Assembly (NCBI GenBank): GCA_002440965.1
Contig: DJWJ01000019.1
Coordinates: forward strand, 8,119-72,118
Direction: 5' to 3'
Source: Candidatus Omnitrophica bacterium UBA6233
GTDB lineage: Bacteria > Omnitrophota > Gorgyraeia > Gygaellales > Profunditerraquicolaceae
Length of the DNA: 64,000 bases
Within the stretch, counting starts at the first letter, position 1, and each line of letters begins with the position of its first letter. The notes beneath the pieces are model-generated. The model had not been told where the DNA came from, ran no database searches, and saw only the letters and a program-made list of their open reading frames with translations. The position numbers and the translations under genes were made by a program. Below are positions 1 to 27,833 of this stretch, one piece after another.

Positions 1-1744
1 CTTGCCAATAATAGTTACCCCGCAGTTTAGGAGGATTATACGGATTAACCGAAACAATTTCAACACTCTTGTCCCGGTCAGCTTCTTTAAGTTTGTTAAA
101 TAACAAAGTAGCTGCATCTTTAACCTTCTCTTCGGACTTACCGCGTAACTTTACAATAATCATATGCTTATACGGAGGAAAATCCAACTGCCTTCTTTGC
201 TTCAATTCTTCTTCGTAAAATAAATTAATATCTTTTTTTAGCAGCGCCTGAAAACAATGGTGCGCAGGCGAAGCTGTCTGAATAAAGAATTTTTTCCCGG
301 TAAGCCTCATTAGCCCGGACAACAGGCCAAAAACCTTTTCCGTAGCCCGGAAATCAACCCGGTTCAAAGCGTTATCTATTCCCAAAACTCCGATAAGGTC
401 AAAATCCAGCCTCACCTGTTTAATAACAGCGCTGGTAGCTATGAATATATCCGCATTTTCCAAACTTGTATTTGCATCATCGATTATCTTAAGGCGCGCC
501 TGCGGAAATATCCTGGCAAGCTCACTCTCTATCTTTTCCGTCCCGCTCCCTGAAAACTTGATATATCCGGAATTGCATTCCGGGCAGATTTTTGGGGCCT
601 CGATTTTATAATTGCAATAATGGCAGCTGAGTAAATCGCCTTTAAAATGATACACCAAATTTATGTTGCAGCGAGGGCACTTAAGTATCTTACCGCAAGT
701 CTGACAGGCGCAGGATGTGGCAAAACCCTTGCGATTAAGAAATAACAGCGTTTTCCCTTTATTATTCAGAACAGTATAAACAGCCTCTTCTAATAATCTG
801 GACAAAACCGCTTTTTTATTCCTATCCTGAAAAGGCAGGCGGCGGGTATCGATAATTTTTATTTCGGGAAAATCTTTTCTTCGAGGGAGAACGATATAGC
901 CGGATTTATTTTTCGCGCATAAATAAAAGCTTTCCAGGGAAGGCGAACCGCTTCCTAAAATAATACTGGCCTGACTTAATTTAGCCCGCAATAAAGCGAC
1001 CTTGCGCGCGTGGTAATGGGGAACCTGATCCTGTTTATACACAAAATCATCTTCTTCGTCGATAATCACTAAACCCAAATCATCCACCGGAGCAAAAACC
1101 GCTGAGCGAGTGCCAAGAACAAGCTTTGCCCCGGATGAACTTAGCTTTAACCACTCTTTAAGCTCTTTGGGTTGCTTACGGAATAAAACTTGCGCCTCAA
1201 CTCCCAAACGCTCCCTAAGGATACCCGCCGCCTTGCTTACTTCCAAGATATCAGGCAATAAAACTATTACTGATAGTTTTTTTTCTAAAGCCCCTTTAAT
1301 CCTGGCGGCATAAATATCCCAACGCGCCTCTCCATCCAAATCATGAATTAAAAAAAGGGACGGTTCTATCTTTCCGGCAGCAGACTCATAAAAAATAGAA
1401 GCGCCCCCTTCTTTATCTGCTATTTTCCCTCTTCTTAAATCCTCAGGGATTGCCGTTTCAATCGCCTCTCCCCAAGAACAATAGTAATACTCGGCAATCT
1501 CCCGGGTAAGATTCAGCATATTCCTGGACAATATGGGAAAACTGTCGATTAACTCCAAAACTGGTTTTAAATTCTTTACTTCGCTTTTTTTAGATAAATC
1601 CACGACGTAGCCGGTTACACGCCTTGGCCCAAAACTTACCCAAACCCTTTTGCCAACCGCAATTTTGGAAACCAGGCTATCCGGAACAATATAATCGAAT
1701 GGCCCGCTAACCGGCAGGCCAACCGCGACTTTAGCGTATAACAT
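1..1744 (-). CDS. priA: Primosomal protein N' (PriA helicase), 5'-partial within window (C-terminus lies beyond position 1)
   Basis: Reverse-strand translation from ATG at 1742-1744 gives MLYAKVAVGLPVSGPFDYIVP (typical PriA N-terminus), later LVIIDEEDDFVYKQDQVPHYHAR (DExH box region) and a Cys-rich zinc-finger block (CQTCGKILKCPRCN...CHYCNYK...CPECNS) near 600-720; no stop down to position 1, hence absent from ORF track. Confidence 0.75.
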   Translation of the reverse strand, partial: MLYAKVAVGLPVSGPFDYIVPDSLVSKIAVGKRVWVSFGPRRVTGYVVDLSKKSEVKNLKPVLELIDSFPILSRNMLNLTREIAEYYYCSWGEAIETAIPEDLRRGKIADKEGGASIFYESAAGKIEPSLFLIHDLDGEARWDIYAARIKGALEKKLSVIVLLPDILEVSKAAGILRERLGVEAQVLFRKQPKELKEWLKLSSSGAKLVLGTRSAVFAPVDDLGLVIIDEEDDFVYKQDQVPHYHARKVALLRAKLSQASIILGSGSPSLESFYLCAKNKSGYIVLPRRKDFPEIKIIDTRRLPFQDRNKKAVLSRLLEEAVYTVLNNKGKTLLFLNRKGFATSCACQTCGKILKCPRCNINLVYHFKGDLLSCHYCNYKIEAPKICPECNSGYIKFSGSGTEKIESELARIFPQARLKIIDDANTSLENADIFIATSAVIKQVRLDFDLIGVLGIDNALNRVDFRATEKVFGLLSGLMRLTGKKFFIQTASPAHHCFQALLKKDINLFYEEELKQRRQLDFPPYKHMIIVKLRGKSEEKVKDAATLLFNKLKEADRDKSVEIVSVNPYNPPKLRGNYYWQ

Positions 1745-2822
1745 CGGAAATTTCCTTACAGCTGAACGGCCTCTTAATCTGCCGCATTGCGTTTCTGACT
1801 CTTTCAAGTTTATCAGGATGGGCTTTAAAATCCAAAACTATATCTTTAATTTCATAAACGTTTTGGGGAGCTAAACCAATGCCGTCCTGGGCCAAAGCTT
1901 CCACATTACCCTCTTCCTGGCCCGGTATTACCGAAATAAATACCGGAGCCAATTCCATATTGAGTATCTCGGCTATGGTAGAACCCCCGGGCTTAGTCAG
2001 GATAATATCGGAAACCGCCATCAATTCCTCGGCGTTATTCACGAATCCGAAAACTTTTGTATTCGGCAGATTTATTTTCTTCATTCTCGCAAAAAGTTTT
2101 TTGTTCGCCGCGCAAACGACCAAAACCTGGGAATCCCGATGTATCAACCTGCTAATCTTTTCAAGCGGGCCGGTGCCAAAAGAACCGGTCATAAGCAAAA
2201 CCGTAAATTTATCCGCCGATATTCCGATTTTAGCTGCCAGGCCCGCGCGATCGAATTGTTTTAAAAACTTGATATCCGACGGTAATCCGCACACCTTTAC
2301 CTTTTCATCCGGCACGCCTTCTTTAAGAAGCTTGTTTTTAGTAAAATCCGAAGCCACTATATATAAATCCGTGCCCTCCTGAATCCAAAAAGGATGCACG
2401 CCAAAATCAGTAATTATAGTCATAACAAAAGATTTTATTTTACCTTTACCTTTTAGATAAACCGCTATTTCCGAAGGCAGAAAATGCGTAGAGATAATGT
2501 AATCGGGGTTTTTACGGATTAAAAACGCGCTAAATTGACGGGTATTGACTTGATCGATTAAAAGCGCAATCATCCGGGTCAAAGGCCGGAACAAGCTGAA
2601 TTCAGTCAACCAGAACGAAAAATGCCAGAGTGAAACCGCATACCTTACAAGAAATGTGTAACCTTTGGTATAGTCGAACCTGAACAAAGCATTTGTTTTA
2701 TCCAATATATCGACTATTTCAATCTCGAGCTCCGGACGGTTCTCTTTAAGATAATTGTACACCGCTTCAGCAACCCTGCGGTGGCCTGCGCCGGCAGACG
2801 CGTAAGTAATTAGTATTTTCAT
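1731..2822 (-). CDS. Glycosyltransferase family 28 / MGDG-synthase-like (UgtP-type processive diacylglycerol glycosyltransferase)
   Basis: 363 aa ORF; N-terminal SAGAGH-type motif (YASAGAGHRR) and GT-B C-terminal domain typical of MurG/UgtP/MGDG synthase family. Confidence 0.55.
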   Translation of the reverse strand: MKILITYASAGAGHRRVAEAVYNYLKENRPELEIEIVDILDKTNALFRFDYTKGYTFLVRYAVSLWHFSFWLTEFSLFRPLTRMIALLIDQVNTRQFSAFLIRKNPDYIISTHFLPSEIAVYLKGKGKIKSFVMTIITDFGVHPFWIQEGTDLYIVASDFTKNKLLKEGVPDEKVKVCGLPSDIKFLKQFDRAGLAAKIGISADKFTVLLMTGSFGTGPLEKISRLIHRDSQVLVVCAANKKLFARMKKINLPNTKVFGFVNNAEELMAVSDIILTKPGGSTIAEILNMELAPVFISVIPGQEEGNVEALAQDGIGLAPQNVYEIKDIVLDFKAHPDKLERVRNAMRQIKRPFSCKEISDVIR

Positions 2823-2830
2823 CTTTAGTT

Positions 2831-2904
2831 AGGGACGGTTCTCAAACCAAGGCAAAACTGTCCCTACCTGGGGACACTTTTAGATTGAGTTGAGAACCGT
2901 CCCT
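2831..2904 (-). repeat. Structured hairpin of the GGGACGGTTCT family, ending 10 nt upstream of start codon of 1731..2822 and overlapping the 3' codons of gmhB
   Basis: 15-bp perfect stem AGGGACGGTTCTCAA (2831-2845)/TTGAGAACCGTCCCT (2890-2904) enclosing inner stem GTCCC(2860-2864)/GGGAC(2871-2875). Confidence 0.6.
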
Positions 2905-3463
2905 GATTTAGCATAAGGAAGTTAGCCGCGCTTTTGAGGTTTTTAAAGATAAAATCCGGCTGAACTTCCCAATTTTTTTGATTCGCAAGTTTTTCTTTTC
3001 CCGAAAGGACAAGAATGGATTTACAGCCAGCGCGATTTGCGGTAATTACATCACGAATAGTATCGCCTATAAAAAATGAACGTGTAATATCGAACTTAAA
3101 TTCCTTTGCCGCATTCTTTAACAACCCGGGCTTTGGCTTGCGGCAGGAACACCCGGCGTCTTTACGATGAATGCAATAATAAACTTTATCTATTTTACCG
3201 CCGGCTTCTTCTACTTCCAGAAGCATCTTGCGGGTAATAGCTTCAAGGGTGCGTTTGGCATATATGCCTCTTCCAACACCAGCCTGATTAGAAGCAATAA
3301 AGATTTTGAATCCGTTCTTGCTTAATTTGGCAATTGCAGATTTTGCGCCTGGCAAAAAACTAAACTTCTTAACCGAAGTAACGTATAACTTATCCCCCGG
3401 ATACCTGTTAATTACTCCGTCTCTATCCAAAAACACTACTTTTTCCATACTCTTGCGCGTCAT
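2864..3463 (-). CDS. gmhB: D,D-heptose 1,7-bisphosphate phosphatase (HAD-family, GmhB-like); true start possibly at Met6 (3448)
   Basis: 199 aa ORF with HAD motif I FLDRDGVIN and GmhB-like Cys-rich insert (CIHRKDAGCSCRKPKPG); C-terminal codons run into the 2831-2904 hairpin. Confidence 0.6.
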   Translation of the reverse strand: MTRKSMEKVVFLDRDGVINRYPGDKLYVTSVKKFSFLPGAKSAIAKLSKNGFKIFIASNQAGVGRGIYAKRTLEAITRKMLLEVEEAGGKIDKVYYCIHRKDAGCSCRKPKPGLLKNAAKEFKFDITRSFFIGDTIRDVITANRAGCKSILVLSGKEKLANQKNWEVQPDFIFKNLKSAANFLMLNQGRFSTQSKSVPR

Positions 3464-3476
3464 TGCAAAACTTTCT

Positions 3477-3522
3477 CGGACAGCGTGGCAAGCTTACCTC
3501 GGACAGCGTGGCAAGCTTATTT
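3477..3522. repeat. Perfect-to-21/23 tandem duplication of 23-bp unit CGGACAGCGTGGCAAGCTTA(CCT/TTT) between gmhB and GT2 gene
   Basis: Read directly: units at 3477-3499 and 3500-3522. Confidence 0.8.
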
Positions 3523-4264
3523 TTTGCATTTCCTTAAATTTAAGATAACTCAATATCTGATACAAAGAATCGAAATAAGCAATCACAAATCCATACATTC
3601 CATCTTTATACGCCTTCTTGCGCAGGTATCTTCTAAAGAACCTATCCACTGCGCGCCAGGCAGCCCAGATCAAAGTCATTTTTCTGCCGGTATTTATCCA
3701 TTTCTTTGCCTCTAAAGTCGATTGCCGGTTGATGCTATTCAGGAAATGTTCTAAATCCGGATAACCCTTATGGACAATGTCGTTTTTTAAATGCCCGCAT
3801 TTTCCGTCAATGATTGCCCGCGGATGGACTTCCGCTTCTTCATATTTGAATTTATCCTTTCTGAAAAGCCTTACCTTTGAAGCCGGATACCAACCTCCGT
3901 ACTTCACCCAATATTTCCCGATAAAATTACGCAGAGGAATATCGTAAGCGACAAACTCGTCGAACTTAATCGCTTCCTCAATCTCATTTTTTAATTCCGG
4001 AGCCACTTTTTCATCGGCATCCAGGCTCAATACCCACAAGTTAGACGCCTGAGCATAGGCCCAATTCCTATGCTTACCTTCTATATCCATCTTACGGTGA
4101 AAGATCTTATTGGTGTAAATTTTGACGATCTCGATGGTTTTATCCGTACTCTCATCGTCAACTACAATAATTTCATTCGCCCATTTTACCGACTCAAGGC
4201 ATTCGGCAATACAAGATTCCTCATTCTTTGTTATAATAACAACGGATAGATTAGCCATTAACAT
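3494..4264 (-). CDS. Family 2 glycosyltransferase (LPS-core type, WaaE/KdtX-like)
   Basis: 256 aa; VVIITKNEE...IIVVDDESTD...SLDADE motifs (GT2 DxD fold); C-terminal tail encoded by 23-bp tandem repeat. Confidence 0.6.
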   Translation of the reverse strand: MLMANLSVVIITKNEESCIAECLESVKWANEIIVVDDESTDKTIEIVKIYTNKIFHRKMDIEGKHRNWAYAQASNLWVLSLDADEKVAPELKNEIEEAIKFDEFVAYDIPLRNFIGKYWVKYGGWYPASKVRLFRKDKFKYEEAEVHPRAIIDGKCGHLKNDIVHKGYPDLEHFLNSINRQSTLEAKKWINTGRKMTLIWAAWRAVDRFFRRYLRKKAYKDGMYGFVIAYFDSLYQILSYLKFKEMQKISLPRCPR

Positions 4265-5369
4265 ACTCCTTTACAGATTGAATGATATAATCTTGCTCTT
4301 CCCGGGATAACTCCGGATAAATCGGTAAAGTCAAAATCTGGCGCGCCGCAATTTCGGCTTCCGGTAAATCGCCTTTTTTATATCCTAAATACTTAAAACA
4401 CTCCTGTAAATGCAGCGGGATTGGATAAAAAACCCGCGAATCAATTCCTTTCTGGCGCAAATATTCCAGTAAACCCTTGCTTTGTCCTTGGACCCGCAAA
4501 ACATATTGGTGGTAAATATGAGTCGTAAAATCCGCGACAAACGGAACCTTGATAGGTAAACTAGCCAGGTTCCGGTTATAAAATTCAGCGATTTCCATTC
4601 TCTTGTTATTCCAGCCAGCAAGGTATTTTAGCTTAACGCCTAAAACCGCAGCCTGAAGCGAATCCAGGCGGTTATTCCGGCCTAAAATCAAATGGATGTA
4701 GTTATTTCTATTTCCCTGATTACGCAAAATCTTTATTTTTTCAGCTAAACTTTTATTATTGGTAAGGATCGCTCCGGCATCCCCAAAGGCCCCTAAATTC
4801 TTACCGGGATAAAAACTAACCGCTCCGCAATCCCCCAAGGTTCCGGACTTCTTACCTTTATATTCGGCCCCGAAACTTTGCGCCGCATCCTCCACAACTT
4901 TTAGTCCGTATTTACGCGCTAATTTCAAAATTCCGGACATATTCGCGCATTGGCCATAAAGATGCACCGGGATAACCGCTTTAATCTTAACCTTGCTTTT
5001 TCTCGCCAGAATCTTTCTAACGCTTTCGACCGAAATATTATAGGTATCTTTATCAATATCGGCAAAAACCGGAACCGCGCCGATAGCCGCCGCAGCTCCT
5101 GCCGTAGCGTAATAAGTAAATGCGGGGCAAATCACTCCCTCGCCGCTCTTAATACCCAAAGCCAGCAAAGCAAGGCTCAAGGCATCTGTTCCGTTGGATA
5201 CCCCAATAGCGTATTTTACATTGCAATATTGCGCAACATGCCTTTCAAACCGCTCCACGCGTTCTCCAAGAATAAAACCGGCATGGTCAATCACCTCTTT
5301 AATCGCCGCATCCAATTCTCCCCTGATAGGAGCTATTTGCTTCTTTAAATCCAAGGCTGGTATTTTCAT
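4251..5369 (-). CDS. DegT/DnrJ/EryC1/StrS family PLP-dependent sugar aminotransferase
   Basis: 372 aa; GVSNGTDALSLAL and SFYPGKNLGAFGDAG motif retaining the PLP lysine. Confidence 0.75.
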   Translation of the reverse strand: MKIPALDLKKQIAPIRGELDAAIKEVIDHAGFILGERVERFERHVAQYCNVKYAIGVSNGTDALSLALLALGIKSGEGVICPAFTYYATAGAAAAIGAVPVFADIDKDTYNISVESVRKILARKSKVKIKAVIPVHLYGQCANMSGILKLARKYGLKVVEDAAQSFGAEYKGKKSGTLGDCGAVSFYPGKNLGAFGDAGAILTNNKSLAEKIKILRNQGNRNNYIHLILGRNNRLDSLQAAVLGVKLKYLAGWNNKRMEIAEFYNRNLASLPIKVPFVADFTTHIYHQYVLRVQGQSKGLLEYLRQKGIDSRVFYPIPLHLQECFKYLGYKKGDLPEAEIAARQILTLPIYPELSREEQDYIIQSVKEYVNG

Positions 5370-5396
5370 TGTTCCTCTTTCGTCAATGACGGAACA

Positions 5397-6488
5397 CTAC
5401 CGCAATAATCCCATTGCCGCCTCAAACACCGCGTCAACAGTTACCTGTTTTAAACACTCCTTATCCTTGCCGCAAACCGGAAGCTTGAAATCCCTGTAAC
5501 ACGGCCGGCATTCCACATCCCATTTTAATACCGGATGGTTCTTCTTATCGGGATACGGACCGTAAACCAACTCACTGACCGGGCCGAAAACCGAAACAGT
5601 TTTTACACCCAAAGCGCAAGCCATATGCATCGGGCCGCCATCATTGGATATTAAAAGATTAAGATTCCTGATTACTGCCGGAAGTATTTCTAACTTAACC
5701 TTACCGGTTAAATCTACCGGCTTATGGGCCATAGCATTAATAATTACTTCGGAAATTGGCTGCTCGGTTTCATCGCCTAAAACTATTATTTTTGCCTTAA
5801 ATTCAGCAGCGAGCCTATCCGCCACCTGCGCAAACTTCAATGCCGGCCAGTGCTTATAAACGGCATCCTTTCCCCAACTTCCTCCTGCTCCGGCGGCAAT
5901 TCCTATTACCAAATCTCCTTTTTCAATCCCCCTGGCCGCAAGCATATTTTGCGCCTTTGACTCGGCTTGGGCAGAAACCATCAGCTCCAAAGGCCTGTTT
6001 TTTGCTTCGAGCTGCAAAAAACGCAGCAAATCCAGATAGTATTCGACTACGTGTTTACCGCTATAAGAAACTAAATCTATTTTGTCCGTAAGGAATCCAC
6101 CCCTATTTTTATAATTAAACCCTACGCGCTTACGGATACCTATAATTTTCGCAAATAAACTATAGCGATAGTCCAAGGAAAAGTCAAAGCAAATATTAAA
6201 GTTACATTTTTTAATCTCCCGCCCGAGTTTTAAGGCCTCTTTCAGCCCGGCAAAAAATGACTCTTGATATATCTTCTTGAGGTCGCCGCGGTTTAAACCG
6301 AAAAGCCGGTTGATTTTAAGGCTTGCTTCCAGTAATGGCCGCACTCTTCTATTGCACCAATACCCAATAAAACAATCCGGGTATTTTTCTCTCAGAGCAC
6401 TTATTAACGGAGTGGTAAATAAAACATCCCCGATGCCAAAAGGATTAATAATCAATATCCTTTTATTTCCGCTACCTGTTGAAATCAT
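5397..6488 (-). CDS. Glycosyltransferase family 9 (ADP-heptose:LPS heptosyltransferase-like)
   Basis: 363 aa; RILIINPFGIGDVLFTTPLI N-term and GGPMHMACALGVKTVSVFGP C-term motifs characteristic of GT9. Confidence 0.7.
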   Translation of the reverse strand: MISTGSGNKRILIINPFGIGDVLFTTPLISALREKYPDCFIGYWCNRRVRPLLEASLKINRLFGLNRGDLKKIYQESFFAGLKEALKLGREIKKCNFNICFDFSLDYRYSLFAKIIGIRKRVGFNYKNRGGFLTDKIDLVSYSGKHVVEYYLDLLRFLQLEAKNRPLELMVSAQAESKAQNMLAARGIEKGDLVIGIAAGAGGSWGKDAVYKHWPALKFAQVADRLAAEFKAKIIVLGDETEQPISEVIINAMAHKPVDLTGKVKLEILPAVIRNLNLLISNDGGPMHMACALGVKTVSVFGPVSELVYGPYPDKKNHPVLKWDVECRPCYRDFKLPVCGKDKECLKQVTVDAVFEAAMGLLR

Positions 6489-7872
6489 CTTCGAATCTTT
6501 CTATATCGTCTTCACCAAGATAACTGCCGGTTTGAACTTCTACAATCTTTAAAGGCTCAGCCGAGGTATTCTGAAGCCGGTGCTTAGTCCTCTTAGGAAT
6601 GTAAATACTCTCATTGCTACGCACAATTTTAGTTTTATTCCCGGCAGTAACTTTAGCCACGCCGGAAACAACCACCCAATGCTCAGCGCGTTTTTCATGG
6701 CGCTGCAAACTCAAACGCTTTCGCGGAAATATTTCAATAAGTTTAATCTTAAAACCCGGGCTATCCCTTAAAACAGTAAAAGTCCCCCACGGCCTTTTTT
6801 CAGTAAAATGGACTAAACGTTCCTTACGGTTGGTTGACTTTAAGATATCAACCACTTTCTTAACATCCTGGGTTTTTCCCCGGTCGCAAATCAAAAGCGC
6901 ATCAGGTGTATCGGCGATAATCAGGTCTCTTACTCCGATTGCCGAAATGAGCCTATCAGCCTTACTAAAAATAGCTACTCCGCGGTTATCCAGATTACAG
7001 GTATCTGCCTGCGATATGTTCCCCGAATCATCCTTTGGGCTAACCTCAGCCAAAGCATCCCAGCTGCCTAGGTCTGTCCAGAAGAAATCAGCCGGGATTA
7101 GCGCGATTTTCCTGGAATACTCCATTATCCCGTAATCAACTGAAATTGGCTTAATCTCCGGCCATACCTTCTTAATATCTTTAACTGACCTGATAAAATT
7201 TAACTGCCTGGATAATTCCGGCAGATATTTACGCATCTCTTCCAGGAATACGCTCGCCTTCCAGATAAACATCCCGCTATTCCAGTAAAAACGCTTGTCT
7301 TTAAAATACTTTTTAGCGTTGCTTAAGGAAGGTTTCTCAAGAAAATCCTCAACCTTATAAGTCGATAGTCGATAGTCGATAGTCGATAGTCGTTCGGCAA
7401 CCCTAATATAGCCATACGCTGTTGAAGGATTGCTTGGTTTTATTCCTATTGTAACCAGGAAATTATCTTTAGCGCAAGCAATTGCTTTTTTGATAGCCTT
7501 CTTAAAATTAGAAATATTCTTAATGTAATGATCCGCCGGTAAAACCACCAAAACAGCTTTCTTATCAAACCGCGAGATTAATTCCGCGCAAAGCCCGATA
7601 GCCGGCGCGGTATTTTTACCAAGCGGCTCCAAAATTATATTCTTATCCGGAATGCCGAATTTAGCGACCTGCGCCTTAACCTCATAAAAATAAATATTAT
7701 TCGTAATGATAAAGGTATTCTTCGGGCTAACGACGCCTTTTAAACGCTGGATAGCCGACTCTAACAGGCTCGCCTCTCCGATTAAACGCATAAATTGCTT
7801 TGGCTCAAGTTCACGTGAAAACGGCCAAAACCTGCTCCCTACTCCGCCAGCCAAGATTACGGCATAGACCAT
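6472..7872 (-). CDS. manC: Mannose-1-phosphate guanylyltransferase / mannose-6-phosphate isomerase (bifunctional type II PMI, ManC/CpsB)
   Basis: 467 aa; N-terminal ILAGGVGSRFWP nucleotidyltransferase motif plus C-terminal cupin (RPWGTFTVL...EHRLQNTSAEPLKIVEVQTGSYLGEDDIERFED); ATG at 7870-7872 preceded by GGAGGG RBS (ORF track start 7875 is a TTG). Confidence 0.8.
   Translation of the reverse strand: MVYAVILAGGVGSRFWPFSRELEPKQFMRLIGEASLLESAIQRLKGVVSPKNTFIITNNIYFYEVKAQVAKFGIPDKNIILEPLGKNTAPAIGLCAELISRFDKKAVLVVLPADHYIKNISNFKKAIKKAIACAKDNFLVTIGIKPSNPSTAYGYIRVAERLSTIDYRLSTYKVEDFLEKPSLSNAKKYFKDKRFYWNSGMFIWKASVFLEEMRKYLPELSRQLNFIRSVKDIKKVWPEIKPISVDYGIMEYSRKIALIPADFFWTDLGSWDALAEVSPKDDSGNISQADTCNLDNRGVAIFSKADRLISAIGVRDLIIADTPDALLICDRGKTQDVKKVVDILKSTNRKERLVHFTEKRPWGTFTVLRDSPGFKIKLIEIFPRKRLSLQRHEKRAEHWVVVSGVAKVTAGNKTKIVRSNESIYIPKRTKHRLQNTSAEPLKIVEVQTGSYLGEDDIERFEDDFNR
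7361..7392. repeat. Heptanucleotide microsatellite (GTCGATA)x4.6 inside manC coding sequence
   Basis: gtcgatagtcgatagtcgatagtcgatagtcg; encodes RLSTIDYRLSTYK in manC. Confidence 0.8.
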
Positions 7873-8017
7873 CAAATATTACCCTCCAGAATATCTACTA
7901 AAACGATTTCATCCATCTCCTTTAGAACGCTTAGTATGCTTCTTTTTAATTTAGGAGTGAACACGCAGGAAAAGAAAAATTTTATTTTTTCCATCTCACC
8001 TTTATCAAGCAAGGCGT

Positions 8018-8572
8018 TTAAAATTCGGATTGCAGCATCTTAATCCTTAATACGCTTATCTTCGCTCTTTCTTTCTTTCTTTCTTTTGACACAATTAGTT
8101 TATGTAAAGCGAAAACTGCCGGATGGGGCAGATTAATTCTTAAACTGCCAATTTTAACATTAATAAGCTTACTTGTAAGCAAGTTAAGATATCTAAGCCT
8201 CTGGGCGTTAACACCAAGTTCGGGTAATTTAAACGGCTGGTCTAAACCTGCTCCTTTTTCCGAAACTAAAAATTCCAAAACAAGATCAGGATGCTCTAAT
8301 TTTATATATCCTTGCGGCCCCTTAAAACCAAGGATAAAACCAAGATCTTTCAATAAATCTTCCAAATCAACCTTGGCTTTTATACCTAATGGCAATGGAA
8401 CAAGCAAATCAACATCTCTAGTTGTTATAGAGGTGACATACTTTGACCCGGAGAAATATTCCTTATAGAAGGGAATGCACCAGCTTCCAACAAGAACCAG
8501 ATTTTTTAACGCCCCCACTTTATCTAATCTGCTTAAAACCTCAATGCACAAATCATACTGACTGTTTTCCAC
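8018..8572 (-). CDS. Nucleotidyltransferase-fold protein (Pol-beta-like NTase, possible toxin/Abi-type)
   Basis: 184 aa; GS-x9-DxD motif (SGSKYVTSITTRDVD) typical of minimal nucleotidyltransferases; no homology to glycan genes around it. Confidence 0.4.
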   Translation of the reverse strand: MENSQYDLCIEVLSRLDKVGALKNLVLVGSWCIPFYKEYFSGSKYVTSITTRDVDLLVPLPLGIKAKVDLEDLLKDLGFILGFKGPQGYIKLEHPDLVLEFLVSEKGAGLDQPFKLPELGVNAQRLRYLNLLTSKLINVKIGSLRINLPHPAVFALHKLIVSKERKKERAKISVLRIKMLQSEF

Positions 8573-8870: not shown

Positions 8871-8930
8871 CGCCTTAGCCTCCTGATATGAATATCAAGA
8901 GTATTTTATAATATTCAGCCTTAAAATACA

Positions 8931-8980
8931 ACAAAAAAGTTACCATACAAAAATCAAAACTACATACTTTGTATGGTAAC
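8931..8980 (-). terminator. Rho-independent terminator downstream of heptosyltransferase gene 9088..9993
   Basis: Perfect 13-bp inverted repeat GTTACCATACAAA (8939-8951) / TTTGTATGGTAAC (8968-8980), 16-nt loop, followed on the transcribed (minus) strand by TTTTTTGTTG. Confidence 0.5.
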
Positions 8981-9087
8981 TTTAAGTGTGCCCAAATCCA
9001 CTCTCCTAATGTCCCTAACTAGAATTCTTATACAAATACAAATAATTAACAAATACGTTAACTATCTGCACTTAGCCCATATCAAAT

Positions 9088-11353: not shown

Positions 11354-11772
11354 CCTTGCGATCCCTTCTTTTTAAAAATAACTTCCGCATCATTTACCTT
11401 TTTTAACACGCCATAGCCGCCTGGAACAACTTCATTAGACTTATAAAGCAAAACGAATTCCGGATCAAACGGATCCATTATTGCCGGCCAAAGCATATAT
11501 CTTGCCCGGACCATATCAAGTCCTTCTATCCCTACGAATTTATAAGTCTTTCCAGCAGGGATTTGCTCTTTACAATAATCAACGAAGTCATGCAAATCTT
11601 GACCCATTATGAAACGTTTTCTCTCCGCGTCATTATGGGTATAGAGAAACTTGAGCTGGATGTATTCCCCTCTCTTATTCTGCTTGATTAAAAAAACAAC
11701 CCAGAGTATCAGCCATAGAAAAACAACTAATAAATATATATTTTTTTTAACCAGGAGGTTTTTAAATTTCAT
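11350..11772 (-). CDS. Hypothetical protein with N-terminal membrane anchor
   Basis: 140 aa; single N-terminal hydrophobic helix then soluble domain; overlaps neighbours by 4 nt. Confidence 0.3.
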   Translation of the reverse strand: MKFKNLLVKKNIYLLVVFLWLILWVVFLIKQNKRGEYIQLKFLYTHNDAERKRFIMGQDLHDFVDYCKEQIPAGKTYKFVGIEGLDMVRARYMLWPAIMDPFDPEFVLLYKSNEVVPGGYGVLKKVNDAEVIFKKKGSQG

Positions 11773-21115: not shown

Positions 21116-21116
21116 A

Positions 21117-22283
21117 TTATTGATAAATACTTATTATTTCATTCTTTAATTTAAGCACCCGCCTGATCTGCCGGATTATCTCCTCCTGATAACCGTATGT
21201 TGATACCAATATAGGCAAACTTTCACCGCGTATTTCTGCCGGCGGTTTTATACTTATACCGCGCAGCTTCTTTCCGGCGTACCTCAGGTTTGAATCGACG
21301 AAAAATGATATTTTTGATAAGTCAAGGGCTGAACCAATCAATCTCTGGGTATGAGTGCCTGCGCCCCAAACAATAATTTTATTCCTGCCGGACAGTTTAC
21401 TATGAATGGCTCTTCTAACCTTTAGATCAAGTTTTGAACAGCCGGCAATATAGCTTTTTATCTTTCTTGCGCTGATATTATCCTTAACGGTTTTCATATC
21501 GCTCTTGCCTGTTTTTTTCAAAAGGACAAAAAGCACAGGATCAATGTTCTTTCTCGCCTTATTTTCATTCCTCTTTACCGCTGCTATCGAAAATGAGAAT
21601 CTCGAAGCCAAATTCCCGATTGAATACCTGGAAAAATAATTGATATGTTCGATACTAAACTGCTGGAATGGCGGGTATATGTATTTGTCAAACCGCTCTG
21701 TATCAGGCACCTCTAAAAATACTAATCCGTTTTCATCTAATAAACTATGTATTTTTCGCATCGGCGCCTTGAGATCTACCAAATGCTCAAACACAGAGGA
21801 TAAAATCACTAACCCGAATTTTTCCTTGCCCTTATAGCTTGTTATGTTGTTAGAGGTAACATTAATATCGTATATCTTTTTAGCCGCTTTTGCGCATGAA
21901 GGCGACGGATCAATACCCTCTAAATCGCGATACCCGCGTGTTTTAAGCACCGATAGCAGGGCGCCTGTCGAACAACCGATATCCAATATTTTTGCGCATG
22001 GATGCTTTATATGAGGAATCAAAAAATTCACTATTTTCCTAAAATGGGCCATGTTCCCGGCTGGCACAGCGCCAGAATTATTATTGAATTCATATTTAGA
22101 CATCCGCGCATAGTAATTATCGAATTCCGCCTGCGGAGGGATATTGTCAGCGTAAATGAAACCGCATTTTTTGCATACGGCGACATTATATTTTTCCATC
22201 AGCGAGATTTCATTATTACGGAAATTCTGCACATAAAGCTGCCTTTTTTGAGCACAGCCGCAAACCGGACAATCTCTGGACAC
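21117..22283 (-). CDS. SAM-dependent methyltransferase with N-terminal zinc-ribbon (NDP-hexose C-methyltransferase-like, TylC3 family architecture)
   Basis: 388 aa; CPVCG...(28 aa)...CKKCG zinc ribbon, then SAM motif ILDIGCSTGALLSVL, then ~150-aa C-terminal domain. Confidence 0.5.
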   Translation of the reverse strand: MSRDCPVCGCAQKRQLYVQNFRNNEISLMEKYNVAVCKKCGFIYADNIPPQAEFDNYYARMSKYEFNNNSGAVPAGNMAHFRKIVNFLIPHIKHPCAKILDIGCSTGALLSVLKTRGYRDLEGIDPSPSCAKAAKKIYDINVTSNNITSYKGKEKFGLVILSSVFEHLVDLKAPMRKIHSLLDENGLVFLEVPDTERFDKYIYPPFQQFSIEHINYFSRYSIGNLASRFSFSIAAVKRNENKARKNIDPVLFVLLKKTGKSDMKTVKDNISARKIKSYIAGCSKLDLKVRRAIHSKLSGRNKIIVWGAGTHTQRLIGSALDLSKISFFVDSNLRYAGKKLRGISIKPPAEIRGESLPILVSTYGYQEEIIRQIRRVLKLKNEIISIYQ

Positions 22284-22285
22284 CT

Positions 22286-24079
22286 CTAATTGCCCTCCTG
22301 TATAAATATATTTTCTTTAAATTCTTTTCTATCCAGAAAAGGGGACATATCCTCAAGCCGGCTTGAAACTATCTTGCCGTTATCCAGCTTACTGGAGGAA
22401 AGCCGGGGAGCGAATTTATAATTCGTTTCAAGCATAACTTCGCACAAAATCGCGCCTTCCGAATTTATTATCTTAAGGATCTTTTCAGGCATGCCCTTAT
22501 GGGTTGTAATTTTTGCGGCCTTGATCCCAAAAGCGCCGGCCACTTTCACAAAAGAAGGGAAACTGACCCCTGATTTTTTATCGCATCCCACATACGGCGG
22601 GCCAAAAAAATTCTCCTGCGTCTGCCTTATCGAACTGTATCCGCCATTATTCAACACGAATATCTTAATCGGCAGTTTATTATATTTTATGGTCTGTAAT
22701 TCCTGTATATTCATCTGGATACTGCCATCTCCGGCTATGCAGATTATATCCCTATTCCCATTGCCTATGCATGCCCCTATGGAAGCCGGCAAATCATACC
22801 CCATTGCAGCACAACCTGAGTTCCATATTACCCGCTGTTTGTCTTTAACTATACCTGCCTGGAATAGAACTACGGATGGAGTCGCGTTTGCGGTAACAAT
22901 CGTCTCTCCGGGCCTGGCTAATTCGGTAAGAACCCGCATAAAATAATAAGGATTGACCGAAGCAGACCTGCTGTATTCCGGAAGCACTACCGGATACTTA
23001 TCCCTCCTCTTGCTGCACCACAACAACCAATCCTTGCAGTCAAAGCCGGAAATTTTATATTGCAAAAATTTGCTTAAGAAAAGCCCGGCATCGCAGTTAA
23101 TGGCAATATCCGGTTTAATTGTCGGTTTTTTTAGCTCTGCCGAATCTATATCCACAACAACTTTCTTTGCAGCATGCGCGAACGACTGCCAATTATAGCT
23201 AACCTGCCTTATATTATTCCTTGTCCCCAGGCATAAAACGAGGTCGGAATTCTGCAAAGCGAAATTTCCCGCACGGCTGCCTAATGTTCCTATCCTGCCG
23301 ATAAAATACGGATTATCGGAAGGCACTAAATCAAAACCGTTAAAAGTAGATAAAACGGGAACCTTTAATTTGCGGATTAGAGCCAGTAAAAATTCCTTCG
23401 CCCCTGCTATCCGTATTCCATTACCGGCAACTATGACCGGCCTTTTTGATTTCTCAAGCAATTCGAGAAAATGCCGTATTTTACCGTCAATATTATCTGG
23501 TTCCCGCCTGAGGATAATACCGGATCCGATTAGATTATTTTCTTCTATAACTGCTCCCTGAATATCCAAGGGAATATCCAACCACACCGGCCCCGGCCTT
23601 CCGGTAGCCGCTAGGTTAATTGCCTTATCCAATAATTTCCTTATATCTTCGGCTTTCCTGACCGTAGCGGCGAATTTTGTCAATGGCCTGACAACACTTA
23701 CTATATCCACTTCCTGGTCGCCTAACTGTCTTAATCTAATATTTGGACAGGAAGCAATCGTGGTTTCGGATTTTACCTGTCCGGATATATATAACACCGG
23801 AACTGAATCCGTCCATTGCCCCATAACGCCGGTTAACGTATTCAATCCCCCCGGGCCCGTAGTTACATTGACAACGGCGAGTTTGCCGCTTACCCTGGCA
23901 TAGCCTTCCGCGGCTATAGCGCAAGCCTGCTCATGATGCATAAAAATACACTTGAGAAGTTTATTCTTCCCGAATGAATTATTTAAATGCATTGCGCCGC
24001 CGCCGGTAACCATAAAAACGCGCCTAACTCCGTATTTCGTCAGGTACCTGGCGATATAATCGGAAACCTTGATTTTCAT
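22286..24079 (-). CDS. Thiamine-diphosphate-dependent enzyme of the acetolactate-synthase family (YerE-like C-C bond forming enzyme candidate)
   Basis: 597 aa, three-domain ALS architecture: N-terminal Pyr domain (VFMVTGGGAMHLNNSF), central domain, C-terminal PP domain with GDGSIQMNIQELQT. Confidence 0.75.
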   Translation of the reverse strand: MKIKVSDYIARYLTKYGVRRVFMVTGGGAMHLNNSFGKNKLLKCIFMHHEQACAIAAEGYARVSGKLAVVNVTTGPGGLNTLTGVMGQWTDSVPVLYISGQVKSETTIASCPNIRLRQLGDQEVDIVSVVRPLTKFAATVRKAEDIRKLLDKAINLAATGRPGPVWLDIPLDIQGAVIEENNLIGSGIILRREPDNIDGKIRHFLELLEKSKRPVIVAGNGIRIAGAKEFLLALIRKLKVPVLSTFNGFDLVPSDNPYFIGRIGTLGSRAGNFALQNSDLVLCLGTRNNIRQVSYNWQSFAHAAKKVVVDIDSAELKKPTIKPDIAINCDAGLFLSKFLQYKISGFDCKDWLLWCSKRRDKYPVVLPEYSRSASVNPYYFMRVLTELARPGETIVTANATPSVVLFQAGIVKDKQRVIWNSGCAAMGYDLPASIGACIGNGNRDIICIAGDGSIQMNIQELQTIKYNKLPIKIFVLNNGGYSSIRQTQENFFGPPYVGCDKKSGVSFPSFVKVAGAFGIKAAKITTHKGMPEKILKIINSEGAILCEVMLETNYKFAPRLSSSKLDNGKIVSSRLEDMSPFLDRKEFKENIFIQEGN

Positions 24080-24087
24080 TCTTCCTG

Positions 24088-25179
24088 CTATAATCCTCGG
24101 CTGTATATTGTATTCTTCAAACCTTCATTGTTGGCATAGGGGCTGTCGATCATATCAATCTTTATCGGTTCATCCTTCTTGCAGGGCTTTAACAAAACTT
24201 CTCCGCTCATCAATTCCCTGCAGGAAATCTGGCCTTTTTGCAAAGGTATAGCCAGATACACATCCTGCTCCATATCTTCATGATGGAAAATATGCCCCTT
24301 TGGTAAATCCCTTTTTGCATAGACTCCCCTGACAAGAGCGTCAAGATATGTAATTTCTTTCTCGGAAGGGAACCTTTTTGAAGCTCCGGAGGCGCCGCAC
24401 ATCTCTTTCGCTTTTTTAAAAGCCTTAAACCAGGCATCTATCTGATGAGGAAGAGAACAATAGGCAGAAACGGGGTGTTTACCGTCTTCTATATCTATGT
24501 GCCTTTCAAAAGTCCTTGCCCCTTTTGCGTAAGCTATCATTATGGAAGAAGACCAATCATGGTATTCATGGGTAGATAATCCGATGGTATGGTTAGGATA
24601 CCTATTTTTCAAGAAATCTATCTGATTTAGCTCCAGCTCGTGGTCTTCGGAAGGATATAACGCAACACAGTGATTTAAAGCAAGCGGGATATTCCTGTTT
24701 TCAAAAAAAACAACCAGATCATCAAGGTCCTTAAGAGACGAACCCCCGGTAGAAACAATAACCGGTTTCTTGGTCCGGGCAATCCTCTCTATCAATACCC
24801 AATCATTTAAATCGGAACTGGCAATTTTCAATATTTGAATCCCTATTTCCTCACAAAAACCTACAGAATGCTCGTCAAACGGCGTTGCCGAGGAGATCGC
24901 CCCTCCTTTTCTAATAGCATCCACCATAACCGTAAAATCCTCCGGAACCAACCGGGTATCTAGCGTTTTTTTAATATACCGCAGGTCTGCCCTATCGCGA
25001 AAATCCTTATGTATAAAATTGCTTACGTCCCTTATCTGAAGCTTGATGGAAGCTCTTACATTGTTAAACCTGATTATCCTGGAGAATTCACTTATAATCC
25101 TCAAGCCTCTTTCCAGATTGCCGTAATGGTTATTGGCTAATTCTAAAACAAACAAATCTTCAAATATATCCTTATTCAT
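24088..25179 (-). CDS. NeuB-family sugar-PEP aldolase (sialic/legionaminic/pseudaminic acid synthase paralog) with C-terminal SAF domain
   Basis: 363 aa; N-terminal LELANNHYGNLERG (NeuB TIM-barrel signature) and C-terminal SAF-like region. Confidence 0.65.
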   Translation of the reverse strand: MNKDIFEDLFVLELANNHYGNLERGLRIISEFSRIIRFNNVRASIKLQIRDVSNFIHKDFRDRADLRYIKKTLDTRLVPEDFTVMVDAIRKGGAISSATPFDEHSVGFCEEIGIQILKIASSDLNDWVLIERIARTKKPVIVSTGGSSLKDLDDLVVFFENRNIPLALNHCVALYPSEDHELELNQIDFLKNRYPNHTIGLSTHEYHDWSSSIMIAYAKGARTFERHIDIEDGKHPVSAYCSLPHQIDAWFKAFKKAKEMCGASGASKRFPSEKEITYLDALVRGVYAKRDLPKGHIFHHEDMEQDVYLAIPLQKGQISCRELMSGEVLLKPCKKDEPIKIDMIDSPYANNEGLKNTIYSRGL

Positions 25180-25206
25180 AACAATACTACCTCCTCTTAA
25201 GATAGA

Positions 25207-26085
25207 TTACTTGTCGGACAACAATGATTCTCTATTAATTGCCGCTTTGTTTTCCGAATACCACGAATAAAGTCCGCCTATCGATTTCTCCATCGGGCTG
25301 AAATTGAAATCAAGTATCTGGCTGCGGAGCCTTGCATTATCCCCGCTATACTCATAGCACATTCCTTCCTTAGCAACTTTAATCGGAAGCTTTTTGCCGG
25401 ATATTTCGATTACTTTTTCGGCTAACTTATATAATTCCACCGAGGCATCCGGCGTAATATTATAGCAGTTATACTTTGCCTCATTCTCTATGAAATGCGG
25501 AATAATCCTCACAAAATCCTCGATGTAAACATAATCGAATTTTCTATTCTGTTTTGCGGTAATCGGCAGATCGAAAATGGCCTTGCAAATTGCGTTAGAG
25601 ATGAACCTTATGGCATAATCTTCATATTTACCGAAAATACCGAAAATACGCAGTTCTACGATATTTTCGAGCTTCTCTATCTGTTTAGCTATAATATACT
25701 TGGAAAATCCATGCTCATCCTCGGGGACATACGTATCAAAAAAATCTTCGCTTACCTTTACCAACGGCTTGGACACATCGTATACCGCACCCGAACTTAA
25801 AAATACCATCTTGCCGAAATACCCTCTATTCCGGATTATGTTAAAGAACATACGTAAATTATTATAAAGCTGCCTGGACGGATCCTTGGCATTACGGTTC
25901 CCGGGGCGCACGGCGCTGTGGATTATCACATCCGGCTTATGAACCTGAAGATAACTTCTTACCGCATTTCCATCCAAAAGCTCCAGTTCTTTATGCCCTG
26001 GGGCAAATAATTCATACTTTTGCTTCAGGTATTCTGCCAGATTCCTGCCGATAAAGCCGCTGCCGCCGGTGAGAAATATTTTCAT
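25207..26085 (-). CDS. NAD(P)-dependent epimerase/dehydratase-family protein (candidate NDP-4-keto-sugar reductase)
   Basis: 292 aa; Rossmann motif IFLTGGSGFIGRNL. Confidence 0.6.
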   Translation of the reverse strand: MKIFLTGGSGFIGRNLAEYLKQKYELFAPGHKELELLDGNAVRSYLQVHKPDVIIHSAVRPGNRNAKDPSRQLYNNLRMFFNIIRNRGYFGKMVFLSSGAVYDVSKPLVKVSEDFFDTYVPEDEHGFSKYIIAKQIEKLENIVELRIFGIFGKYEDYAIRFISNAICKAIFDLPITAKQNRKFDYVYIEDFVRIIPHFIENEAKYNCYNITPDASVELYKLAEKVIEISGKKLPIKVAKEGMCYEYSGDNARLRSQILDFNFSPMEKSIGGLYSWYSENKAAINRESLLSDK

Positions 26086-26822
26086 AATTTATAAATCAGG
26101 CCGTCCCTGGCGGCTATGGTGTTCTTAAAAATCTTCCGGGCGGATTCTTTAGCTAATCTTATATCGCTTTCTTTCAAATAATCGCCGGCATCGAAATGCA
26201 CCAAAACCAATTTTTTTACTTTCGCGGCCCTAGCCGCCCTAGCCGCCTGTTCAGGATTTAAATGCGGCCACCCCCTATCGATAACTCCAGGAAGCAAGGA
26301 TGACTCTGCTATTAATAAATCTGCGTTTTTTGCCAAGGCCAGCATTCCTTTACATTCTCCGGTATCGGTGCAAAAAACCAATGTTTTACCGCCGGCGGAT
26401 AAACGGTATCCGTAACAAACAGTCGTATGCAAAAGTTTTTCATATTCGATATCAAAAGGGAACTTCAGGCCGCGGCTGATATCTTTAACCAGGATTTTTG
26501 ACTTAAGCTTACGGATAGGTTTAGAATACGGAGTATTAATGACAAGATTAAACATTTTCCGCGTTCCCTTTGGCCCAAAAACTTTGATGCCCTGCGGAAA
26601 AACGAATTTATTCAAAGCGTGCAACCCGATAATATGGTCCAAATGAAAATGGCTCAAAAAAAGATAAACGGGACGCTTGTCTTTTATGTAATGGTCAATC
26701 TTGGAAAAACCCGTCCCGGCGTCAAAAATAACATACTCCCTGCCGGTATCCACCAAGACGCAAAGGGTGTTACCGAGCCGGCCGTCATACCAACCCATAG
26801 TCCCCAAGAATATAACCCGCAT
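26082..26822 (-). CDS. MBL-fold metallo-hydrolase
   Basis: 246 aa; HFHLDH metal-binding motif. Confidence 0.6.
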   Translation of the reverse strand: MRVIFLGTMGWYDGRLGNTLCVLVDTGREYVIFDAGTGFSKIDHYIKDKRPVYLFLSHFHLDHIIGLHALNKFVFPQGIKVFGPKGTRKMFNLVINTPYSKPIRKLKSKILVKDISRGLKFPFDIEYEKLLHTTVCYGYRLSAGGKTLVFCTDTGECKGMLALAKNADLLIAESSLLPGVIDRGWPHLNPEQAARAARAAKVKKLVLVHFDAGDYLKESDIRLAKESARKIFKNTIAARDGLIYKL

Positions 26823-26836
26823 AAAATTAGACAGGA

Positions 26837-27769
26837 TTAATCAAAATTAATCCGTTCCCTCTCGATAACTAAAGGCCTTTTCCTGACTTGAGTATAAATT
26901 GCCCCGATATATTCCCCCAATACCCCGATAAAAACCAGCTGGACGGAGAAGAAGAAAAACACACCGACAACCAGAGGGGCGACTCCTAACTGGAAATTAT
27001 TCCAGAAAATTAATTTATATATTAAATATATCACCCCGATTATAAAGAATATGAAGGAAAATATCATCCCGAAAAAAATCGCCATCCTCAAAGGCACCTT
27101 GGAATTATTCACGATGCCTAACATCGCCATATCAAACAAGGTATAGAAATTATTTTTAGTAATTCCCGCGGCCCTATTTGGCTGGACATACTCTACAAGC
27201 GCAACATCGGAACTTATCTCAAGTATTAATCCCCTCAAGTATGGATACGGATCCTTGATGCCCCTTAAAGCTTCGACAACCTTCTTGTCAAAAAGGCCAA
27301 ACCCGGAATAATTCTCTATCTGTTTCTCTTCTGAAAGGGAATTTAATAACTTATAGAACAGCTTCCTTACGGTAAACATAAGAGAATTTTCCTTGCTCCC
27401 GGTTTTTACCCCCACAACAACTTCATGGCCGGCTTCCCACTGCCTTATGAAATCGTTTATCAATCCCGGAGGATCTTGCAAGTCGGAAGCGATATTGATA
27501 ACCGCGTCTCCTTTGGCTTGCAATAAACCGTAATAAGGCGAACGGATATGGCCAAAATTCCGGGCGTTCACAATTATTTTTAAATTTTTGTCCTTAGCGG
27601 CAATACTTTTAAGAATCTCAACGGTTTTATCCGTCGAGGCATTATCGATAAAGATATGTTCGTAAGTGTAGCCGCCCAAGGCGCCGAAGATTTCTTTTAC
27701 CTGCCGGTATAGCTCATAAACATTCTCTTCTTCGTTATAGCAGCCGGTTACGACGCTTATTTTCTTCAT
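26837..27769 (-). CDS. Polyprenol-phosphate glycosyltransferase (GT2, DPM1/ArnC-like) with C-terminal TM helices
   Basis: 310 aa; ISVVTGCYNEE...IDNASTDKT...ASDLQD then two hydrophobic helices. Confidence 0.65.
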   Translation of the reverse strand: MKKISVVTGCYNEEENVYELYRQVKEIFGALGGYTYEHIFIDNASTDKTVEILKSIAAKDKNLKIIVNARNFGHIRSPYYGLLQAKGDAVINIASDLQDPPGLINDFIRQWEAGHEVVVGVKTGSKENSLMFTVRKLFYKLLNSLSEEKQIENYSGFGLFDKKVVEALRGIKDPYPYLRGLILEISSDVALVEYVQPNRAAGITKNNFYTLFDMAMLGIVNNSKVPLRMAIFFGMIFSFIFFIIGVIYLIYKLIFWNNFQLGVAPLVVGVFFFFSVQLVFIGVLGEYIGAIYTQVRKRPLVIERERINFD

Positions 27770-27779
27770 CTTAATAAAA

Positions 27780-27833
27780 GGGGACGGTTCTATTTTTCTT
27801 AAATACCTAAACCGGAAAAATAGAACCGTCCCC
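27780..27833 (-). repeat. 19-bp-stem hairpin of the GGGACGGTTCT family, 10 nt upstream of start codon of 26837..27769; T-run follows on the minus strand
   Basis: GGGGACGGTTCTATTTTTC (27780-27798) pairs perfectly with GAAAAATAGAACCGTCCCC (27815-27833); 16-nt loop. Confidence 0.6.

Follow-up and report, generated by a model that had tools for sequence, protein, structure and literature searches.

Background

Repetitive extragenic palindromic (REP) sequences, the hairpin-forming inverted doublets of REPs (REPINs) and the REP-associated tyrosine transposases (RAYTs) have so far been studied almost only in Proteobacteria, and only two groups of RAYTs have been tied to abundant repeats (PMC5581495). 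The TIRYT/TIRtron systems comprise RAYT-like tyrosine transposases with inverted repeats of a non-GTAG type, some of them carrying the motif GGGGWSAS, which are moderately abundant and occur as dimers and clusters (Di Nocera, De Gregorio & Rocco 2013, PMC3733652); the taxa covered there do not include Omnitrophota or Bacillota, and the text contains neither 'Firmicutes' nor 'Clostridi'. The same study reports REPs lying in frame within genes, often genes of DNA replication and repair, as well as CGTC-type REPs, a class that includes the Rickettsia palindromic elements (RPEs) RPE-4 and RPE-6 and to which no transposase is assigned (PMC3733652). Here, a family of palindromic elements is described from a stretch of 64,000 nucleotides (nt) of Candidatus Omnitrophica bacterium UBA6233 (GenBank assembly GCA_002440965.1, contig DJWJ01000019.1, positions 8,119 to 72,118), hereafter the window. 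The hairpins of the window are probably REPIN-type doublets of a REP-like unit with the core GGGGACGGTTCT, and would thus belong to a non-autonomous family that is most likely mobilised in trans by a RAYT-type HUH/Y1 transposase; a RAYT-like clade is tied to these repeats by direct flanking in Omnitrophota and Clostridia. The kind of element is an ordinary one (REP/REPIN-RAYT); new are the little-studied phylum and the unusually long core, which is common to several phyla.

Repeat elements in the window

The 11-mer GGGACGGTTCT occurs exactly at five sites of the window, 1357(+), 2832(+), 2893(-), 27781(+) and 27822(-). When at most one mismatch is allowed, seven matches are found against 0.59 expected, a number reached in none of 100 shuffled sequences, and the claim of the first-pass annotation that two strong hairpins share a common core is therefore well founded. 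These hairpins are elements A and B (positions of all features are listed in Table 1). The outer arms of element A are GGGACGGTTCT and AGAACCGTCCC, with a nested, degenerate inner pair GGGACAGTTTT / AAAAGTGTCCC; its arms, at 2831-2864 and 2871-2904, form the perfect outer stem of 15 bp with the nested GTCCC/GGGAC stem that had been described, and the RNA fold reaches -46.5 kcal/mol (z = -6.1). The stem of element B is longer than first proposed (19 bp at 27780-27833), its arms at 27777-27798 and 27815-27836 forming 22 perfect pairs (z = -4.7 as RNA and -8.0 as DNA). In agreement with the earlier description, a T-run (UUUUAUU in the transcript) follows element B and none follows element A. Both elements reach into the gene upstream: the stop codon of the gmhB-like open reading frame (ORF) at 2866-2864 lies inside hairpin A, and the 5' arm and spacer of element B supply the C-terminal codons of the epimerase (..KGDGSIFPV*). 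The overlap with the last codons of the upstream gene had thus been correctly seen at A, but it is not confined to A. All 59 ORFs of the window with at least 150 amino acids (aa) lie on the minus strand. Two matches to the core with one mismatch, at 2733-2743 and 52953-52963 (CGGACGGTTCT, GGGACGGGTCT), are located in coding sequence without a partner arm and are probably due to chance.

A 17/17 match to one arm at 1354-1370 within priA had been regarded as a solitary half-site. The match is real, but a decayed partner arm, GGGGCGCTTCTAT, with two core mismatches is present at 1397-1413, which makes the site a third full doublet, element C (3' arm exact, 5' arm GGGGGCGCTTCT). Its RNA fold is weaker than those of A and B (-29 kcal/mol, z = -2.4), and its DNA fold is weak (z = -1.0). 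Element C is located in the linker between the 3'-DNA-binding domain and the helicase core of PriA.

Additional DNA of the same organism was obtained from contigs encoding the same proteins in at least 12 metagenome assemblies, so that about 81 kb were covered in total. A fourth copy, element D (AAAAAGGGGACGGTTCTATTTTC...GAAAAATAGAACCGTCCCCTTTATTTTTTATG), is situated 7 kb outside the window; 7 kb more on the right flank of the window contained no further copy and no RAYT gene. The organism thus carries at least four elements, located at unrelated sites, within about 81 kb. The first-pass annotation had made the case for a repeat family depend on further copies in the genome; element D is such a copy, and a large family exists in other genomes.

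Distribution and architecture of the repeat family

In a paired-core scan using one genome per species, the paired core was detected in at least 120 species tiles from Bacillota, Bacteroidota, Actinomycetota, Omnitrophota, Elusimicrobiota, Atribacterota and Desulfobacterota. The Bacillota matches listed include Bacillaceae, Lachnospiraceae and Syntrophomonas, and those of Actinomycetota include Micropruina and Coriobacteriia. In viral contigs the real core pattern yielded ten matches and the scrambled core control none. Since the base at position -1 of GGGACGGTTCT is G in 81% of the copies, the core is taken to be the 12-mer GGGGACGGTTCT, the most variable position of which is its last T.

The flanks of the core vary between genomes and are complementary to each other (e.g., GAGTCA/TGACTC, GAAGCA/TGCTTC and GCGGAAC/GTTCCGC). 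On average the exact complementary run measured 5.26 nt; with flanks re-paired across loci it measured 3.35 nt (never above 3.67 in 200 trials), and complementarity was seen in single units too. Each unit thus forms a short hairpin whose loop carries the core; one such unit is CAAGAAAAATAG-GGGACGGTTCT-AATTTTTCTTG. Besides single units there are inverted doublets and tandem arrays, the latter with periods of 19-58 nt (in L030, L072, L106 and L043), and copies are locally dense in, e.g., L030, L046, L107 and L135. The inverted doublets, both the window elements and the paired copies elsewhere, fold into one long hairpin, as REPINs do. The tetranucleotide CGTC is present inside the reverse core AGAACCGTCCC, but the layout of CGTC-REPs (stem of 8-9 bp, loop of 4-5 nt, CCA tail) was not found. 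Rfam yielded no match at the gathering threshold for the window and 18 copy-rich loci, and only generic, miRNA-like hairpin matches at a permissive threshold for L030. Literature searches for the core sequence itself, spelled as DNA or as RNA, met only unrelated primer sequences.

A hairpin downstream of gap in a relative (L131:13570-13610, AAAAGGGCGGTTC-tttct-GAATCGCCCTTTTTT) resembles two abutting cores, with an A:T pair missing from both arms; judged by its sequence, it may be a collapsed doublet retained as a terminator.

Transposase flanked by the core

All-versus-all clustering of the ORFs from 120 tiles revealed no gene family common to more than 11 loci and had suggested that no protein is linked to the repeat. 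The linked gene was recognised on inspection of an array-bracketed ORF in L030 (Clostridiales UBA3678), which is flanked by six (+) and four to five (-) cores. The encoded protein matches Pfam Y1_Tnp (E = 2.5e-16), and its best NCBIfam model is NF047646, the REP-associated tyrosine transposase (69.8 bits, compared with 16.5 bits for the IS200 model). Homologues of this protein numbered 667 at E-values up to 1e-5, one of them named RayT by JGI. Elsewhere, RAYT homologues have related but different flanking cores (GGGACCGGTTCT, GGGACAGTCCC), which indicates that the repeat tracks the transposase.

When metagenomes were scanned for the Omnitrophota-type arm GGGGACGGTTCTATTTT, 120 tiles holding it were obtained, of which seven contained a RAYT homologue; in five of these seven the exact core is no more than about 90 nt away from the gene ends. 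It precedes the start by 50-90 nt in (+) orientation, lies at the stop in (-) orientation, or does both. Such inverted flanking was encountered in the Clostridiales locus and in the Omnitrophota-type loci L212, L220, L252, L260, L262, L267 and L268. NCBI names the homologues of the L262 protein 'transposase [Candidatus Omnitrophota bacterium]'; the RAYT genes of L267 and L268, also labelled Omnitrophota, have exact core flanks, the one of L266 has the variant GGGGACGCTCCT, and a second RAYT gene of L267 is flanked by GGGGTCAGAATT. The arm type of element B likewise flanks RAYT genes in Omnitrophota contigs. Both the clostridial and the Omnitrophota proteins (222-262 aa; the NF047646 model has 146 positions) carry the invariant HUH and Tyr motifs; their identity is only 28-32%, so that the exact 12-mer recurs beside transposases that are only about 30% identical.

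Two further candidates were rejected. In L084 a Y1 transposase gene lies 2.4 kb from a core pair and is not itself flanked by the core. The Omnitrophota RAYT P0306 was considered as the window organism's own; the NCBI accession numbers are far apart, and it probably belongs to a different metagenome-assembled genome.

A conserved leader, ..GTTAGATT..CCTCCTTTTACGTCTATTAATAGTAGAAGGAGG..ATG, is common to the Omnitrophota RAYT genes (L262:9960-10010, L266:9930-10005, L267:9950-10005 and 11620-11685, L268:9950-10005); in it an anti-Shine-Dalgarno stretch can pair with the Shine-Dalgarno sequence. This pairing resembles the translational repression described for tnpA of IS200. L267 (10001-12373) has two RAYT genes at a distance of 1 kb, each bordered by a repeat of its own (GGGGACGGTTCTAATTTTT and GGGGTCAGAATTATTTTT), and a Fic/RHH gene pair is located between them. 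Many of the RAYT-bearing contigs (P0241-P0360, P0121-P0240) are only about 0.8-1.5 kb long, which is consistent with assembly breaks at the flanking repeats.

Table 1. Coordinates of the repeat elements and of associated genes (window positions unless another contig is given; '.' marks features without strand)
Feature	Position	Strand	Description
Element A	2831-2904	.	74-nt doublet between gmhB and the monogalactosyldiacylglycerol (MGDG)-synthase-like gene
Element B	27777-27836	.	doublet, arms AAAGGGGACGGTTCTATTTTTC / GAAAAATAGAACCGTCCCCTTT, 22 bp perfect, spacer 16 nt
Element C	1349-1415	.	decayed doublet in the priA linker, in frame, translated as ..KEGGASIFYESAAGKIEPSLF..
Element D	L001:18536-18596		doublet between gap and a spermine-synthase-like gene
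priA	1-1744	-	full protein 617 aa, cut by the window edge; element C at codons ~110-132
MGDG-synthase/GT28-like gene	1731-2822	-	ATG at 2822, 8 nt past element A
gmhB-like HAD phosphatase ORF	2864-3463	-	last 18 codons run into element A
GT2 glycosyltransferase gene	26837-27769	-	ATG at 27769, 7 nt past element B
NAD-dependent epimerase/dehydratase ORF	27807-28808	-	stop 27809-27807, inside hairpin B
RAYT-like gene	L030:4676-5452		Clostridiales UBA3678, 258 aa, between recD2 and ftsZ

Copies inside genes

Long open frames contain 21 of 135 pairs (about 16%), and on inspection these include in-frame inserts in real proteins, namely Mfd, a MATE transporter, CobT, radical-SAM enzymes, an RNase H linker and an Lpd-like gene with three inserts. 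The inserts translate as GDGS.., GTVL.. or GRF.. at one end and as ..RTVP, ..EPSP or ..NRP at the other. None of the six frames of the core contains a stop codon, which makes in-frame survival possible.

The copy in priA is read as GDGS...EPSP, and the same signature is present in the same linker of the Omnitrophota PriA homologues P0004, P0007, P0009, P0010 and P0014; other homologues have a linker of similar length and unrelated sequence. In the relatives L129 and L130 an intact doublet occupies the same site of priA, with both arms perfect and unrelated spacers.

Several other features of priA were noted. In a number of sister species without the repeat linker, priA is split into ORFs of 114 and 489 aa in different frames (e.g., L131:7670-9464; GGTAAAAAGATTGATCGAG, overlapping TTG start). 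The larger product is exactly 489 aa long in all eight clusters (P0008, P0018, P0023, P0028, P0047, P0071, P0098 and P0113). Omnitrophota PriA (P0001, window 1-1744) is about 120 aa shorter than solved PriAs and lacks Walker A, the LLAGITGSGKTEVY of K. pneumoniae aligning to LIHDLDGEARWDIY; this replacement is conserved in the 40 closest homologues, and Walker B (IIDEEDD) is retained.

Interpretation and alternative explanations

By analogy with IS608 TnpA and the TnpA-REP of E. coli, a single-copy, IS200-like HUH/Y1 RAYT would mobilise the doublets in trans. It would bind the single-stranded hairpin, cut it and rejoin it without target duplication, and thereby spread the doublets; copies would persist where harm is small, either just past stop codons in tight operons or in frame within protein linkers. 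As a possible secondary effect, elements B, C and D might act as terminators or 3'-end stabilisers. The first-pass annotation had offered a dispersed palindromic (REP/MITE-like) element as one of two explanations, and the further copies together with the RAYT link now narrow it to a family of the REP/REPIN type.

Several observations weigh against the REPIN-RAYT interpretation. The GTAG head next to the stem, canonical in proteobacterial REPs, is absent from this family. All RAYT-like proteins have NF047646 as their best model, with scores far above those of the IS200 model, but at 58-70 bits they stay under the NF047646 equivalog cut-off of 80 bits. The density is modest, about one copy per 20 kb, and no RAYT gene was found in the approximately 81 kb of the window organism, so that the RAYT link rests on other Omnitrophota. 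The priA doublet, finally, has kept perfect arms of 19-22 nt at the same position while its spacer has fully diverged, between species with only about 68% PriA identity, which neutral selfish DNA can hardly account for on its own. The conservation of these arms may reflect selection on the structure or repeated conversion. It is a speculative and rather doubtful extension of the REPIN-RAYT interpretation that the core GGGGACGGTTCT is the recognition address of a deep RAYT clade, unchanged across phyla despite a transposase identity of about 30%, and that some copies, notably the priA doublet, have been adopted by their hosts. In this extension the pattern in priA, including the lost linker and split gene of sister species, would point to selection at the nucleotide level, e.g., for an internal terminator or attenuator, or for RAYT-dependent control of this replication-restart gene.

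It is unlikely that the hairpins are cis-regulatory RNAs which, placed before start codons, couple or gate translation of the downstream gene. This idea draws on the closeness of the elements to the next ATG, which was correctly recognised in the first-pass annotation, although the distances are 8 nt for A and 7 nt for B and not about 10 nt; for A, B and D together, 5-8 nt separate the hairpin from the next ATG, and the stop codon of the preceding ORF falls within the hairpin. Three A-type copies (window 2820-2831, L097:4812-4825 and L262:2045-2058) are moreover followed on one side by TAA(C/T)TAAA(G/A)(A), with a start codon 8-10 nt away; with three copies, this tail may belong to the element, reflect a target preference or be due to chance. 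Two substitutions, an A-to-G change in the 5' arm of C and, in some strains, a C-to-T change in the 3' arm of D, preserve G.U pairing only in the sense RNA and are weak evidence for a role at the RNA level. However, a control structure about 10 nt before start codons, as had been suggested, does not hold as a rule. Among the 52 co-directional intergenic cases in 120 metagenome tiles, the upstream stop is at a median distance of 54 nt (one quarter within 9 nt) and the downstream start at a median of 96 nt; 20 further copies lie between convergent genes, 13 between divergent genes and 13 within genes, in both orientations. Start codons are free in the predicted folds of A and B, contrary to the notion that they might be sequestered, and Rfam provides no match.

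The tight spacing in the window has another origin. At the gmhB/MGDG-synthase junction of the relative L130 the element is absent, gmhB encodes 181 aa, and the two genes are separated as TAA-AAAAA-ATG, a stop-start spacing that is equally tight. At the same junction in the window the 74-nt element is present and gmhB encodes 199 aa, 18 codons being read into the element. This pair of filled and empty sites is evidence of insertion, as is the presence of A-type copies at three different loci in three organisms (window, L097 and L262; 81% column identity); L262 has, in addition, a RAYT gene flanked by B-type units. The lack of room for a Shine-Dalgarno sequence therefore predates the insertion, and the closeness to start codons in the window follows from insertion into very short (5-nt) gaps of a tight operon and is no general rule. 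In L131 this junction (6489-6592) holds a different palindrome of 100 nt, CCCCGCACCTTC...GAAGGTGCGGGG; the gap has thus been struck by another repeat family. As for the orthologous regions, which had been named as a check, the gmhB/MGDG-synthase gap is empty in L130 and contains an unrelated hairpin in L131, and the priA doublet is present in L129 and L130.

There is only a small chance that the elements are miniature inverted-repeat transposable elements (MITEs) derived from a DDE-type insertion sequence, in which the core would serve as terminal inverted repeat and insertion would leave a target-site duplication. The inverted termini, small size and dispersed occurrence are what would be expected of such elements. 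Yet no target duplication is visible between the filled site of the window and the empty site of L130, no direct repeats flank the pairs, whose flanks are inverted, and single units as well as same-direction tandem arrays exist. No DDE transposase is enriched near the copies; it is a Y1/HUH gene that is flanked instead.

An array of binding sites (iterons or operators) for a sequence-specific protein that binds double-stranded DNA and is conserved across phyla is just as hard to sustain. An invariant, asymmetric 12-bp core would suit such sites, and so would the tandem periods of about 21-23 bp, corresponding to about two helical turns, but across arrays the periods range from 19 to 58 bp. The flanks covary as a hairpin stem, which indicates a single-stranded form, no candidate regulator is linked to the copies, and the associated enzyme is of the HUH type, which acts on single-stranded hairpins.

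That the two or three hairpins of the window are independent, ordinary intrinsic terminators with a stem sequence common by chance is highly improbable. Elements B, C and D have the shape of a terminator, their G+C-rich stems being succeeded by U-runs in the transcript, and all lie at or past ORF ends in a gene array on one strand. Against independent origin stand the five exact 11-mers (about 0.6 expected even with one mismatch), the recurrence of the 12-mer core in at least 120 species tiles and beside transposase genes, the absence of a U-run from A and the copies within ORFs. Terminator-like sites in the window occur at chance level in a scan that misses B, C and D, the loops of which exceed 8 nt.

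The DNA uptake sequences (DUS) of Neisseria and the uptake signal sequences (USS) of Pasteurellaceae form terminators as inverted pairs, have single sites in genes, occur about once per kb and are lineage-specific. The chance that the core is such a sequence is negligible, since the likeness (a short exact motif, inverted pairs past genes, one genic copy) is superficial, the copies number about one per 20 kb rather than one per kb, the core spans many phyla, tandem arrays and transposase flanking occur, and the 'single' genic site is a doublet. Integron attC sites were rejected (arms ..AGAACC / GGTTCT.. fit neither RYYYAAC nor GTTRRRY, and the neighbours are housekeeping genes), as were, by eye, a sigma-54 promoter, a tRNA T-arm mimic, a CsrA sponge and an RfaH ops-like site (misfit to the consensus or wrong distribution).

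Under the REPIN-RAYT interpretation the repeats account for the odd ORF ends of gmhB, the epimerase and one RAYT, which ends in GDGSIF, as well as for the in-frame GDGS...EPSP or RTVP inserts in conserved proteins, and probably also for breaks of metagenome contigs. For annotation, it is advisable to mask these repeats rather than to read every hairpin as a regulator. The core recurs also in Bacteroidota and Actinomycetota. As it is long and invariant, the code of protein-DNA recognition should become testable.

Other sequence features

The window contains a long series of genes for glycan and lipopolysaccharide-type biosynthesis, its plausibly coding ORFs of at least 150 aa being all on the minus strand, and its GC skew is -0.11 to -0.21 throughout (1-64000). 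At 8936-8983 an intergenic, perfect 16-nt inverted repeat (AAAGTTACCATACAAA / TTTGTATGGTAACTTT, spacer 16 nt) is present that has no relation to the core. Outside the window, at about L001:20950-20985, a (CT)n microsatellite varies in length between strains (L001 compared with L004 and L005) and adjoins the spot where two 79-kb contigs end.

Comparison with known systems

With Rho-independent terminators the family shares the G+C-rich hairpins and U-runs at ORF ends of elements B, C and D. It differs in that the hairpins are related in sequence and belong to a dispersed family, that A has no U-run, and that stems and spacers are longer than typical.

The transposases belong, like those of IS200/IS605, to the Y1_Tnp superfamily with HUH and Tyr motifs, and hairpin-forming ends and an anti-Shine-Dalgarno/Shine-Dalgarno leader hairpin are found in both. 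Unlike in IS200/IS605, the gene appears to be single-copy and to lie between housekeeping genes (recD2 and ftsZ in L030), the flanking repeat multiplies and not the gene, and the RAYT model scores far above the IS200 model.

As with RPEs, palindromes are translated in frame within conserved proteins, here PriA, Mfd, the Lpd-like protein and others. Sequence and host range are different, and this family has a linked RAYT.

Among the TIRYT repeats, those with GGGGWSAS come close, as the cores described here begin with GGGGAC and the variant GGGACAG of L142 fits that motif, whereas GGGGACGG deviates from it at position 7.

Proteobacterial REP/REPIN-RAYT systems (E. coli, Pseudomonas, Stenotrophomonas) have in common with this family the short palindromic units that occur singly, as inverted doublets and in clusters, mostly past genes in co-directional or convergent gaps and without target duplication, and the inverted repeats that flank a single-copy Y1/HUH transposase gene. 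The proteobacterial unit, however, has a GTAG head beside a conserved G+C-rich stem, whereas a 12-nt core between short complementary flanks is found here; the transposases of this family are longer than the NF047646 model and score below its cut-off; and proteobacterial REPs are lineage-specific, whereas the exact core of this family is common to several phyla.

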